Origin: Candidatus Latescibacterota bacterium
Lineage (GTDB): Bacteria > Latescibacterota > UBA2968 > UBA8231
Length of the DNA: 64,000 bases
NCBI GenBank assembly: GCA_965197905.1
Contig: CBDAOB010000003.1
Coordinates: forward strand, 224,001 to 288,000
Reading direction: 5' to 3'
This document shows, in pieces, positions 51,597 through 56,661 of this stretch. Within the stretch, counting starts at the first letter, position 1, and each line of letters begins with the position of its first letter. A model generated the notes under the pieces. The model saw nothing but the letters and a program-made list of their open reading frames with translations, had not been told where the DNA came from and searched no databases. The position numbers were made by a program, and so were the translations under genes.

Positions 51597-52301
51597 TCAG
51601 GAGCGGGATTTCACGAACTCCAACACGATGAGGAAAGGGACCTGAACCCAACCGCTCCGCCGCTCTTCGGGTTCATTTGGACCGGGGGCAGGTTCCAACA
51701 GAGTGCGGAGCAGGAAACCACACTCCGAAAATGCTTTGATGTACTCGCCCATTGTTCGGTGATAATGATAGACCTCGATGCCTACCGTGGCCATGCCTTT
51801 ATAGATTCGTGTGGTTCCAGAATCGAAATAGGTGTCCGCCTTCTCTCTCAACACGGCTGAATACGGATTGTTTAGCAATAGGACGGCTCGCCCTCCGGGT
51901 TTCGTTACCGATCCCAACGTTGAGATGTACCCTTCATGGTCTGGCACGTCATTCAATACGAAGTAGCTTGCCACCAGATCGAACTGTTCACGGAATTGTG
52001 GAAGAGGGTCGCTGAGATTGGCCACGAAGTACTCGATAGATCCCTCGTTTCTTCGCTTGGCCTTTTCCACCAATTTCGGCGAAACGTCGACACCAGTAAC
52101 TATGGCTCCCTTTGAGTCGAGTACGCGCGCGACAAAGCCTTCGCCGCAGCCAGCGTCTAACACCCGTTGCCCATCGACCTCACCGATCACAGTGAAGAAG
52201 TCGGCCGCTACGAGATCTTTGCCGAGATCCTTCTCGTCGCGACTACCTACCCAGCAGTCATATTCCTCAGCGCATTGATCGTATGTATTGACATCATTCA
52301 T
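51597..52301 (-). CDS. Class I SAM-dependent methyltransferase (SD displaced by IS insertion)
   Basis: VLDAGCGEG, GVDVSP, FDLV, KPGGR, YHRT. Confidence 0.9.
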   Translation of the reverse strand: MNDVNTYDQCAEEYDCWVGSRDEKDLGKDLVAADFFTVIGEVDGQRVLDAGCGEGFVARVLDSKGAIVTGVDVSPKLVEKAKRRNEGSIEYFVANLSDPLPQFREQFDLVASYFVLNDVPDHEGYISTLGSVTKPGGRAVLLLNNPYSAVLREKADTYFDSGTTRIYKGMATVGIEVYHYHRTMGEYIKAFSECGFLLRTLLEPAPGPNEPEERRSGWVQVPFLIVLEFVKSRS

Positions 52302-52418
52302 AGTCTATTCGAGCTATAATCAAAAGGTGTGGAAATACACAGAAGGCGATCCTACCCTTCCTTTGTAATTAGACATTACACGCGCCGGGGCTGTCCCGGC
52401 AGGAAGAGGAGAATCGCC

Positions 52419-55400
52419 ATGCCACAACCTAAGCTGAGCACCGCGGAAATGTCCATGCCCACGTTCGAAACGTTGGAAGCGTGGACGCGGTCGCAGATTC
52501 AGTCTTTGATGCAGTCGGTTTTGGATGAAGAAGTGACGCAGGTGCTGGGGCGGTCGCGCTACCAGCGTCAGGCCCCGTTGGACGCACCCGGCGGCTATCG
52601 AAATGGCTACGGGAAGCGGCGGCGACTGTCCTGTACCTCGGGCACGATCGAGGTAAAACGTCCACGCGTGCGAGGTCTGGAAGAGCGCTTCGAGAGCGCC
52701 ATTCTGCCGCTGTTTGCGCGGCGTACGAAGGAGGTGGGTCAGCTGTTGCCGGAACTGTATCTGCACGGTCTGTCCCAAGGCGACTTCGAGCTGGCGCTGC
52801 GCGGCCTGCTGGGAGCGGGAGCGCCGCTGTCGCCGTCCTCAATCGCGCGTTTGCGGGATAAGTGGATCGTCGAATACCACGCCTGGCGCAGCCGACGGCT
52901 GGATGACCGCGAGCTGGTGTACGCCTGGGCCGACGGGATCGTGCGCCACGAGGCGCCAGAGAACCGGGTGGGATGCAAGGACCCACCAACGGGCTGTCGC
53001 AGCAGCCCGTTGAAGCTGGAGGCAGCCTGACCCTGGGAGCGCAGGGGAAGGTGGAAGCAGCCTCGACAACGACAGAGTGGAGTGGCACCTCCAGACACTC
53101 CACGTCTGGCAAGCAAGACGGAATGGTGTAACCCGAAGTGAACCAGTGATGGAACCCCCTTTAGCGGCCCGCCAACCCAAACCTGGTGGATAAGGGTTGG
53201 TACGCAACGCACGTGGTCGGATATATGACCGACTGCGACTCTGGGGAGGTGTGATACCCACCGAAGCAGAGGCCTTGGAGAATGCCTGCGGCGTACCCAA
53301 GGCGAAGTTGCAGGGGAAAAGCTGGGCACCTCCCCCGTCAAACGGTTCATGGTGAACGTGGGAACCGAGCCGAGTCCGACCGTTATCGGGGCAGCGCGCT
53401 GTCCGCTGTGGGGCTTGGCAAGGGACGGAGCCTCTGTAGTAGTCCGCGAGCGGGAAAGCCGCTTACATGGCGAAGGGAGGCAGCAAGTTGCGCAGTGGGG
53501 TACTGGAAAAACAGGAGGACGCCGGTGAATGCCAGCGCTTCGTGGCCCGAGGCAGAACAAGCCCGTAATCGAGTACTGGAAATCCAGACCAAACTGCACC
53601 GTTGGGCTGTAGAGGATCGAAGCAAGTGCTTCGACGACCTGTTCAACCTGGTGTGTGACCCGGCGTTTTTGAGTGTAGCCTGGCGTCGGGTGCGCAGCAA
53701 CAAGGGTGCTCGTTCGGCCGGAGTGGACGGACAAACGGCCTACTCTGTGGAGACGGAACGCGGCGAGGAGGCCTTTCTCGCCGAGGTGCGGGTTGATCTG
53801 AAGACCCGCAGTTTCCGGCCTCTGCCCGTACGCGAGCGGTTGATTCCGAAACCTGGCACAACGAAGAAGCGCCGGCTCGGCATCCCAACCGCTCGGGACC
53901 GAGTGGTCCAAGCCGCACTCAAGCTGGTGCTCGAACCGATCTTCGAAGCGGACTTCAAGCCGTGCTCCTACGGCTTCCGCCCGAATCGGCGGGCTCAGGA
54001 CGCCATCGCCGAGATTCATCAATTCTGCTCCCGCTCTTATGAGTGGGTGGTGGAGGGCGATATCCGTGCTTGTTTCGATGAGATTGATCACGCAGCCCTC
54101 TTGGACCGCGTGCGTCGACGTATCGGTGATAAGCATGTTCTGAGGCTTGTAAAAGCGTTCTGCAAGGCCGGTGTCCTCACGGAACAATCGGTGTTGCAAG
54201 AAAGCACTTCGGGCACTCCGCAAGGCGGTATTCTCTCACCGCTGGTGGCAAATATCGCCTTATCCGTCCTCGACGATTATTTCACTGAGGTCTGGAGAAA
54301 GGTGGGCGCTACCTCCAGTGCGCGACAAGCGCATCGGCGAAAGGGGCTACCGACTTGTCGGCTTGTCCGTTACGCTGACGATTTCGTGCTGCTGGTGGCG
54401 GGCACCGAAGCTGCAGCGTATGACCTGCGCGACCAAGCGGGGGTGACTCTCACCCCCATGGGTCTGCACCTGTCGGAGACGAAGACCGCCATCACGCACA
54501 TCAGCCGTGGCTTCGATTTCCTGGGTTTTCGCATTCAGAAGCGACGGAAACCGGGCCCGGTTGGCGCACGCATCTATACGTGGCCAAGAAAGGAATCTCT
54601 GGCCCGGTTGAAGAGCACGGTGCGCGCAGTCACGAGAACGGGTCGGCAGAGGCCGTTGAAGAGCCTTCTGCGCCAACTCAATCCGGTGTTGCGGGGGTGG
54701 GCCAACTACTTTCAGTACGGGGTGTCGAAGGCCACTTTCAACTACGTGCGGGGCTTCACTTGGCGCCGCGTAGTGCATTGGCTGCGCCGCAAGCACCCGC
54801 GCTTTAATTGGAGGAAGCTGAAACGCCGCTACCTGCCAGGATGGTGGCCCACCGAGGACGGGATTGCTCTTTACAACGTCGGCGAAGTAGCAGTGACTCG
54901 TTACCGCTATCGATCGGCGCGGATCCCTTCTCCCTGGCCTGCGACAACCGGATGAGACTCTGCGGTCACACGGCACCTTGTGGAGAGCCGGATGCGTGGT
55001 AACGCGCACGTCCGGTTCGGAGGGCGGGCCGGAGAAACCCACATCACGCGTGTGGCGCAGGGCGCTCCGGTCCGACCCTACTACGTCAAAGCCGGGCTCG
55101 AGAAAGAAAAGGCCGCTCTCCTGGTGGTCATCGGCGCCATGAGCGATGGGCGCAAGGAAGTCTTGACGATTGTCCCAGGCTATCGCGAATCGAAGGAGTC
55201 GTGGACGAGCGTGCTGCGCGATTTGCGTGACCGCGGACTGAGCGCGGCGAAGTTGTTGGTGGCGGATGGGCACCTGGGTATTTGGGCCGCCCTGGCGCAG
55301 GTCTGGCCGGAGACGGCGGAACAGCGGTGCTGGAATCACCGCCTCCTGAACGTGTTGGATAAGCTGCCTAAACGCGTGCAGGCCGAAGCGCGGCAACTGC

Positions 55401-55798
55401 TGACACAGATCCCCTACGCGCCGACCCGTCAAGACGCGACCAAACGCCGCGATCAATTCGCCAAACGATTCCACCGCGAATGCCCAGACGCCGTAGATAT
55501 CCTCGAGCGCGATTGGGACCGTATGGTGGCATTCTACGACTTTCCCGAGGCCCACTGGCAACACCTGCGCACTACCAACGTCGTTGAAAGTCCCTTCGCT
55601 TCGGTACGGCTGCGAACCAATGCGGCCAAGCGCTACAAGAAGGTGGCCAATGCCACCGCCCTCATATGGCGGGTACTGATGGTGGCCGAGAAACGATTTC
55701 GCCGACTCCGTGCACCGCATCTTATGGCTGACGTGTACGCCAATGTGCGCTACGAAAATGGATCACACATCGCGCAAAGGAAGAAGATTGCCGCCTGA
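52419..55798 (+). CDS. IS256 (Mutator-like DDE) transposase, exons 52419-52940 and 55082-55798, 412 aa when spliced
   Basis: YRNGYG, PRVR, LYLHGLS, YAWADGI|YVKAG, ESKESW, VADG, QRCWNH, RTTNVVES. Confidence 0.92.
52941..55081 (+). mobile_element. Group II intron (2141 nt)
   Basis: 5' GTGCG, domain V GAGCCGGATGCGTGGTAACGCGCACGTCCGGTTC, domain VI ending CGACCCTAC. Removal restores the transposase frame. Confidence 0.95.
53525..54955 (+). CDS. ltrA: Group II intron reverse transcriptase/maturase, no endonuclease domain
   Basis: AGGAGG + GTG. Motifs AGVDG, IPKPG..RRLGIP..RDRVVQ, SYGFRP, GTPQGGILSP, RYADDF, FDFLGF, domain X LNPVLRGWANYF. Confidence 0.95.
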   Translation: MNASASWPEAEQARNRVLEIQTKLHRWAVEDRSKCFDDLFNLVCDPAFLSVAWRRVRSNKGARSAGVDGQTAYSVETERGEEAFLAEVRVDLKTRSFRPLPVRERLIPKPGTTKKRRLGIPTARDRVVQAALKLVLEPIFEADFKPCSYGFRPNRRAQDAIAEIHQFCSRSYEWVVEGDIRACFDEIDHAALLDRVRRRIGDKHVLRLVKAFCKAGVLTEQSVLQESTSGTPQGGILSPLVANIALSVLDDYFTEVWRKVGATSSARQAHRRKGLPTCRLVRYADDFVLLVAGTEAAAYDLRDQAGVTLTPMGLHLSETKTAITHISRGFDFLGFRIQKRRKPGPVGARIYTWPRKESLARLKSTVRAVTRTGRQRPLKSLLRQLNPVLRGWANYFQYGVSKATFNYVRGFTWRRVVHWLRRKHPRFNWRKLKRRYLPGWWPTEDGIALYNVGEVAVTRYRYRSARIPSPWPATTG

Positions 55799-55854
55799 GT
55801 CGTTTACACACCATTTGACCCAAGCTCGTCTATTCCTTAGTAGAGCTTACCTGC

Positions 55855-56661
55855 CTAGCGGATCTCTTGCAGCCCATTGAAGAGGCAGTAGTGCTGCTCA
55901 ACGCCCATCGCCTCCATCCAGCCGCGCACCTCTAGAGTCTGCCATGTTCCAGATCCCTTCCCCTTGCCGCTGTCGTTGTCCCACAGCCACAGCGGTGTAG
56001 GCCAGATGCAGCGGCGGGCCGCGACGGCTTCGTAGAACGCTCTCTCGACCCCTTCCTGGCCGTGATGGGCCATCTGGACGCAATCGGACGCGAGACGGTT
56101 CCCGTACGGCCCTGCCAGGAGCTTGCGTCCGGCTTCCGCCCCCAGATCCGCGGGGAACAGGACCGACCGGGCCTCGTCCCGCACTCGCATCACCACACTG
56201 GAATTGTTGATCGCGTTAACGATGATCTCCGGGTTCTTTATGCCCAGCACCTCGAAGTGCACCCCATCGAAAGCCAGCTCCTGGCCTAGTTCGAGCTCTG
56301 TCGCTTCCTGCCCCGTGGCGGCCAAGGCCGCATTGAGCTGCACGGTGGTCTCCACTTCCTCCTTCTCATGGGTTTCGACCCAAGCCGTCGTGTTCAGCGA
56401 GCAATAGATCTGGTCTATTTGCAGATCTCCAGACGTTCTGAGGATCTCAGTCAGCGCATCGACGTGGTCGAGGTGTTGGTGTGTGATGAACCAGGCGGTG
56501 ACTCGGTTGCCAAGGGCGGCGAGAAAGCCCTTCAGATACGCCGCATCCTCGGTATAGCCTCCATCGATGGCGATGACATCGCCGTGCACTGTTCGCAGGA
56601 CGTAGCTGTTCATCTGATTGGGCGTCTGCGAGGGCAGCTGCCAGAGCGTGAAGGACTCCAC
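55855..56661 (-). CDS. MBL-fold metallo-hydrolase (ComEC-like subfamily)
   Basis: IDGG, THQHLDH, NNSSVV, FPADL, QMAHHG. Confidence 0.88.
   Translation of the reverse strand: MESFTLWQLPSQTPNQMNSYVLRTVHGDVIAIDGGYTEDAAYLKGFLAALGNRVTAWFITHQHLDHVDALTEILRTSGDLQIDQIYCSLNTTAWVETHEKEEVETTVQLNAALAATGQEATELELGQELAFDGVHFEVLGIKNPEIIVNAINNSSVVMRVRDEARSVLFPADLGAEAGRKLLAGPYGNRLASDCVQMAHHGQEGVERAFYEAVAARRCIWPTPLWLWDNDSGKGKGSGTWQTLEVRGWMEAMGVEQHYCLFNGLQEIR

Follow-up and report, generated by a model that had tools for sequence, protein, structure and literature searches.

What does a group II intron gain from splitting the transposase gene of an insertion sequence (IS), and does it enter resident IS copies one by one or travel with the IS as its cargo? 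The question is raised by a 64,000-nt stretch of the Candidatus Latescibacterota contig CBDAOB010000003.1 ("the window"; coordinates below are window positions, plus strand unless stated), in which an IS256-family element is interrupted by an intron beside the codon of its first catalytic Asp. Group II introns in transposase genes are common according to PMC7306698. The locus is confirmed as a real, intact nested parasite of an already known arrangement. The evidence presented here is best explained by an intron that spreads mainly by homing into IS copies, and the targeting pattern of its whole class is more interesting than the locus itself.

Anatomy of the nested element

The anatomy of the element is read directly from the window (Table 1). 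The IS measures 3517 bp (52311-55827) with its intron and 1376 bp once this is taken out. Intron removal produces a frame from ATG 52419 to TGA 55798 that codes 412 amino acids, has its sole stop at the end and is joined in phase 0 between YAWADGI and YVKAG; only a 1-nt slip of the boundary (52940-55080) would give the identical product. A preliminary description of the window had these limits exactly, including the 8-bp target site duplication (TSD), and had correctly noted both terminal inverted repeats (TIRs), although they are imperfect (19/30 positions agree). Imperfect TIRs with an 8-9 bp TSD are the IS256 arrangement, and the Mutator-type DDE residues D172/D236/E343 with the CxxH pair C257/H260 place the enzyme in the same family. 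Both exons match the NCBIfam IS256 transposase (NF033543) and Pfam Transposase_mut (PF00872; residues 23-166 in exon 1, 181-376 in exon 2). D236, E343 and CxxH were located by alignment to ISCth4 TnpA (PDB 6xg8; numbering from PMC7780238), while D172 was assigned by its position immediately past the aligned N-terminal stretch. The intron lies 6 nt (two codons) 3' of the D172 codon.

Joining of the IS ends by a 6-bp spacer would bring the right-end TTGACC to 17 bp from the left-end TATAAT, forming a predicted junction promoter. The joint between right and left inverted repeats expected in such a circle was not listed among the contigs of four sequencing runs, and a promoter scan of 52200-53600 returned no sigma-70 sites. 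A flanking TTGACA was discarded as −35 partner of the left-end TATAAT, the two being 21 bp apart, which is too far.

Table 1. Features of the intron-bearing IS256 element in the window (EBS, exon-binding site; IBS, intron-binding site; aa, amino acids).
Feature	Positions	Strand	Details
Left TSD	52303..52310	+	GTCTATTC
Left TIR	52311..52340	+	TATAAT at 52315-52320, −10 half of predicted circle-junction promoter
Transposase exon 1	52419..52940	+	aa 1-174; N-terminal DNA-binding region and D172 (codon 52932-52934)
Intron target	52927..52940	+	IBS2 GGGCCG (52927-52932), IBS1 GGGATC (52935-52940), on W-A-D-G-I codons
Group II intron	52941..55081	+	2141 nt; class g1/G; no endonuclease domain matched
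In-frame read-through into intron	52941..53030	+	ends at TGA
EBS2	53165..53170	+	CGGCCC; 6/6 pairs with IBS2
EBS1	53253..53258	+	GAUACC in stem-loop; 5/6 pairs with IBS1
Reverse transcriptase/maturase	53525..54955	+	476 aa; YADD at 283; GTG start after AGGAGG (53513-53518)
Ribozyme domains V and VI	54985..55079	+	AGC triad in V; bulged branch A 55075 in VI
Transposase exon 2	55082..55798	+	aa 175-412; D236, CxxH 257-260, E343
Right TIR	55798..55827	+	TTGACC at 55815-55820, −35 half of predicted junction promoter
Right TSD	55828..55835	+	GTCTATTC

The intron starts with GTGCG and ends with CCCTAC, which agrees with the GUGYG/AY ends of group II introns. Its 3' part matches Rfam Intron_gpII (54983-55081, 57.3 bits) and the folding of domains V and VI has a z-score of −3.9; no Rfam family for domains I-IV matched. 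The intron-encoded protein (IEP) scores 371 bits against TIGR04416 (cut-off 300) and matches RVT_1 and GIIM; no endonuclease family was matched. An RT (reverse transcriptase) phylogeny against class references, as proposed in the preliminary description, puts the IEP in a clade with Rh.js.I1 (52% identical) and Sr.me.I2, both of class g1 (SH-aLRT 98), leaving Ni.ha.I1 (g3) and Rh.sp.I1 (unclassified) outside; this is a quick IQ-TREE of 82 proteins with long reference branches, without class C, D or E references and without five near-duplicate rows (L077, L079, L080, L094, L096). By the g1/G definition, an intron of about 2.16-2.21 kb with an endonuclease-less IEP, the sequence is assigned to class g1/G (references from PMC3552965, Table S2). 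Its closest titled relative is found in a Ca. Latescibacterota genome (L042). Most introns at the IS256 site appear to group together (support 84), with one member outside and one row, presumably of IS1380 type, inside.

Pairing of the intron guides with the first Asp codons

To locate the two guide sequences, alignment columns were scanned without bias against exon positions in the window intron and in 40 relatives, those among the 80 whose 5' ends were usable. Two antiparallel diagonals were recovered, one between 53165-53170 and exon positions −9 to −14, the other between a loop at ~53253-53258 and positions −1 to −6. Pairing is seen in 95% of the 41 introns between exon position −11 and the 53167 column (29% expected), and in 83% between position −5 and the EBS1 loop (28% expected); the introns are related and thus not independent. 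In metagenomes, at least 120 loci have codons for W-x-D-x-x followed by the intron start. The window exon 1 is matched at the junction in 81 of 120, and the 26 that contain complete introns are all full-length. The scan pattern selects W-x-D-x-x by design, therefore these loci demonstrate breadth and not preference. Homing of the intron to the W-A-D-G-I codon block of IS256 transposases is well supported by such comparisons; the renewable target at a conserved DDE codon block put forward in the preliminary description gains strong support from the covariation, from the divergence of the IS256 hosts (see below) and from the metagenome loci. About 2316 other places in the genome of the window reach 5/6 in both pairings when wobble is allowed, and since all are empty, ectopic insertion must be rare.

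Copies in the genome of the window

The genome of the window (G000; an assembly 91% complete) has 11 full-length matches to the intron and one 450-nt 5' fragment. Two of the 11 represent a single locus where contig ends overlap and two others lie in a duplicated 5.6-kb stretch. There are five complete IS loci, all with the intron. Three have perfect and distinct 8-bp TSDs (the window, C5:985277 and C4:588595), so that the comparison of IS copies proposed beforehand did find other intron-bearing copies at sites of their own; the remaining two have mismatched flanks, indicating exchange between copies. Three copies share one and the same 3517-bp sequence, while C4:588595 differs at four IS positions and at none in the intron. 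Besides these full copies, a 714-bp internally deleted, intron-free copy (C5:1593659-1592946) retains both ends, an 8-bp TSD of its own and two changes within the intron target. Its uninterrupted junction implies that the IS was once present in G000 without the intron.

No intact intron-free IS256 transposase was found in the G000 assembly. An isoform of the element (isoform B) is intron-free, frameshifted and truncated, and of two distant IS256-type genes, also intron-free, one is broken into three frames and the other lacks the last catalytic motif. All intron-free relatives being broken, full transposase can come only through splicing in this assembly. Unspliced mRNA codes a truncated product of 203 amino acids, 174 from the transposase and 29 from the intron. 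The proposed dependence of the transposase on splicing therefore stands as far as the sequence goes; splicing itself was not observed. Contigs were compared from two RNA runs of a single sponge study (labelled sponge metagenome) and from two runs that are probably DNA. The RNA-run contigs list no joint skipping 52941-55081, but the exons are almost uncovered there, so that this has no bearing on splicing. They cover the intron in part, which does not show transcription because RNA libraries can hold DNA, and one of them has a weak joint 53611-54957 that corresponds to the breakpoints of a shortened intron described below. An intron-free joint is present in the probable DNA run X3, possibly from another isoform.

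Outside this IS, four solo insertions and the 450-nt fragment lie at partial EBS matches, thus the intron moves alone. Three of the solo insertions (C5:1334419, C4:1827928 and C3:569458; L247-L249) fall within host genes, namely an open frame of 618 codons that has no Pfam match, a heparinase II/III-like gene that is split in frame and, in antisense orientation, a BNR-repeat gene. At C4:335411-333271 the left half of the IS and the intron run into foreign sequence on the 3' side, of which a second copy is found where C3 begins (C3:5526-3386), a chimera due either to recombination between intron copies or to an assembly break. A strand-bias test by GC skew was uninformative: the skew is weak and inconsistent in sign even along single contigs, and both orientations occur among IS-borne as well as solo copies. 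G000 also has a second group II intron family with ~13 copies of 756 nt lacking an open reading frame (ORF) (C2:6726-7481 and ~12 other places); one ORF-bearing relative (C3:1187630-1189167) could drive them.

Relatives in other genomes

The junction pattern occurs in 3 of 76 genomes of the order. In G002, a genome of the same genus assembled in one contig, all seven insertions of this intron are in first-Asp sites of IS256 elements, which are of four types. Four 2172-bp copies of isoform B, each with a different TSD, carry the same 796-nt ORF-less intron; its removal restores 412 amino acids in every copy. The isoform-B IS is 89.7% identical to the window IS and its intron 99.7-99.9% identical to the window intron. 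The other G002 hosts are 69-82% alike or belong to a distant subfamily. A near-identical intron in IS256 hosts so different means that it has homed repeatedly and independently. The ORF-less form is in 4/4 isoform-B copies versus 0/3 other hosts (Fisher p = 0.029; copies not independent). YADD is lost from both longer IEP copies, and one RT-dead intron form resides in two unrelated IS256 hosts (L023, L024), hence defective introns moved without their IS. Two copies of a further isoform (C) are intact and intron-free, with 420-aa ORFs; IBS1 pairs at 4/6 positions in the one scored. L027 and L028 are identical inverted copies ~58 kb apart with swapped TSDs, marking an inversion between them.

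G012, of the same family, has ~30 isoform-B copies and no match to the window intron was found in it; the five copies checked are all intron-free 412-aa elements with flanking duplications. In G019, an ORF-less intron of ~820 nt (L033; 67% alike) is inside a 2.3-kb insertion interrupting an IS256 copy. It was rejected as a same-site case, as it lies within this other insertion and the first-Asp junction of the IS is intron-free.

Spread of the intron among IS copies

We favour, with a probability of about 0.6, a spread dominated by homing. A mobile g1/G intron, with two guide loops that fit the codons W-A-D-G-I, where IS256 transposases have their first catalytic Asp, would have met an IS already resident in the genome, and we infer that it reverse-spliced into the copies singly (retrohoming), straying to a few look-alike sites in host genes. 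With all intact IS copies now occupied, full transposase would be made from spliced mRNA only. Exon ligation is probably poor, by analogy with RmInt1, so that the IS would be mainly damped while the intron would gain a harmless, conserved and often renewed target. The invasion of different IS256 hosts is a repeated and observed event. In G000 the deleted intron-free copy and C4:588595 point to homing, the changes of the latter in the IS and not in the intron suggesting a separate invasion; "inner identical, outer diverged" was likewise taken as a sign of independent insertion in Thermosynechococcus elongatus (PMC2882425). In G002 the two empty intact copies, those of isoform C, have the poorer IBS1 match. 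Three observations weigh on the other side. The three G000 copies that are identical throughout are equally predicted by co-transposition; an isoform-B target in G000 (C4:10384) is empty although 4/4 such targets are filled in G002, therefore homing is not saturated in G000; and the G002 ORF-less form is restricted to isoform B, in the non-independent copies counted above.

These same observations lend themselves to a second, less probable explanation, namely that after one or two homing events the intron-bearing IS transposed as a unit by copy-out/paste-in and made most of the copies, with the intron as cargo. Transposase would come from spliced mRNA or, in G002, possibly in trans from the intact 420-aa ORFs of isoform C. 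Occupancy of all five complete loci with three distinct perfect TSDs would be expected, as would the four 2172-bp copies that share one ORF-less intron at four TSDs (two of them swapped in the inverted pair), the perfect match of intron form and IS isoform in G002, the empty C4:10384, the absence of YADD from both longer G002 copies, and the intactness of IS ends, DDE residues and predicted junction-promoter halves. Nevertheless, the RT-dead form in L023 and L024 has moved without its IS, and the intron-free deleted copy and the 4-SNP (single-nucleotide polymorphism) copy of G000 favour homing. ORF-less copies were rejected as proof of co-transposition: the second G000 family has ~13 of them beside one ORF-bearing copy, the RT-dead form is found in unrelated hosts, and T. 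elongatus provides an example of mobilisation in trans for introns that lack an ORF (PMC2882425). Movement as a single unit, the hitchhiking of the preliminary description, is thus not established, because retrohoming into existing copies yields the same pattern; distinct TSDs fit both routes alike.

A bolder extension, which we regard as doubtful, would make the intron-bearing IS a functional element that moves together with its intron, with splicing as the control of transposase production, much like frameshifting in IS3 elements. Spliced mRNA would code the full enzyme, and the 203-aa unspliced product, end-binding but catalytically dead, could restrain the element. The strong promoter, present on the excised circle only, would fire a burst of transposase mRNA and intron ribonucleoprotein as a new copy forms. 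The locus might then exemplify a strategy of the entire class, with g1/G sub-lineages having shared out the active-site codons of no fewer than eight transposase/integrase families. A further possibility, which is improbable, is that the copies were homogenised, either by recombination and gene conversion among them or during assembly and polishing, in which case occupancy and identity would say little on mobility. Flanks are indeed exchanged: the left flank of C3:314046 equals the right one of C5:2676966/C2, and at C4:335411 the IS left half and intron continue into a 3' flank that also occurs at C3:5526. Overlaps of contig ends coincide with these elements, and the G002 inverted pair has swapped TSDs. 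On the other hand, the flanks of the window copy are unique and its TSD is perfect, copies keep private SNPs, and such processes cannot put the same intron into hosts 69-90% alike or into host genes.

This genome set is valuable as a test case. It combines an intact intron and an intact IS with occupation of all intact copies in G000, an ORF-less version in four copies in G002 and ~30 IS copies of G012 in which no intron was found. It can decide between silencing of the IS as the sole effect of such introns, the view argued for RmInt1, and silencing combined with transport of the intron by the IS.

Targets of class g1/G introns

Of 564 related loci, the best 80 were examined, and in 58 of these the host is a transposase or integrase gene (53 assigned by Pfam scan and 5 by identical flanks; the other 22 have no match or too little flank). 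The first Asp of IS256 is the site in eight cases, one of them G002's own, and one more insertion is near the last Glu of IS256. The remaining hosts are ISL3 (9 of 58), IS110 (3), HTH_38/rve with the motif HWEGDL (4), other rve-type (20), DDE_Tnp_1_4 (2), a tyrosine integrase (1) and, in antisense, DDE_3-type (10). These Pfam families presumably correspond to the labels IS30, IS3/IS481, IS630 and IS1380, and we assume the catalytic roles of the motifs. The class thus appears, from the loci compared, to insert mostly at conserved motifs of transposases and integrases, and host family largely tracks intron clade in the quick IQ-TREE. The ten antisense introns (L059, L067, L069, L073, L076-L080 (L078 among them), L085) lie between VD and EK of the DDE_3-type transposases, an orientation in which splicing cannot rescue the host gene. 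A g1 subclade found mostly in rve-type transposases starts with GAGCG instead of GTGCG (16/20 loci examined: L061, L084, L088, L091, L093, L100, L101, L103, L105, L107, L108, L109, L114, L115, L116, L070), with insertion in most cases one codon 3' of the Asp in W-x-x-D-I.

No description of this tracking of intron lineage by host family, at conserved transposase and integrase motifs, or of co-transposition of an intron-bearing IS, was found in the literature searched, which excludes subscription journals, the Zimmerly database and the supplements of PMC7306698 (these may list IS256 hosts). A large insertion-site analysis (PMC8919778) omitted class g1/G introns, whose 5' ends were undefined, for that reason.

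Comparison with known systems

The closest precedent is Sr.me.I2 in ISRm25 of Sinorhizobium meliloti pSymA, of class g1 like the window intron (PMC3552965, Table S2; the entry names the IS without its family or codon position). Upstream of Sr.me.I2, the 5' exon corresponds to Transposase_mut 126-166; it stops one base past the first catalytic Asp codon, ~5 nt from the window site. The IEPs are 41% identical, insertion is in phase 1 versus phase 0 in the window, and the Sr.me.I2 host gene looks decayed, with no long frame restored, whereas the window transposase recovers its 412 amino acids.

RmInt1, a class D intron of the IS630 element ISRm2011-2, provides the functional parallel: it too is an endonuclease-less intron in a transposase gene, homes into IS copies, has ectopic insertions in host genes, and must be spliced for transposase to be made, the need of splicing for IS mobility being an idea already published (PMC3035460, PMC4238363, PMC5894124). 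It differs in intron class and IS family. Its splicing was measured at 0.07%, which blocks ISRm2011-2 (PMC3035460); in contrast to ISRm2011-2, every intact IS copy of the G000 assembly is occupied.

Among IS elements, ISCth4 and other IS256 copy-out/paste-in elements (PMC7780238; PDB 6xg8) share with the window IS the DDE and CxxH residues, an 8-bp TSD, found in G000 at three full copies and one deleted copy, and a −35 at the right end with a −10 at the left end. The differences are the intron-split gene and a circle promoter that in the window is only predicted. The TeI3/TeI4 introns of T. elongatus resemble the present case in having ORF-less derivatives with one shared deletion; those families were retargeted through EBS changes, and the article names, among the ways in which they proliferate, insertion into a conserved site that belongs to another mobile element (PMC2882425). 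Their IEPs have an endonuclease domain, for which the window IEP gives no match, and, unlike theirs, the ORF-less form described here is found only within one IS isoform of the sister genome G002.

Genomic setting of the IS

The IS sits inside a minus-strand gene pair, with a methyltransferase (51597-52301) on one side and an MBL-fold hydrolase (55855-56661) on the other. The likely ribosome site of the methyltransferase gene, AAGGA, is cut off by the IS from the start of that gene (window 52301-52310 / 55828-55840).

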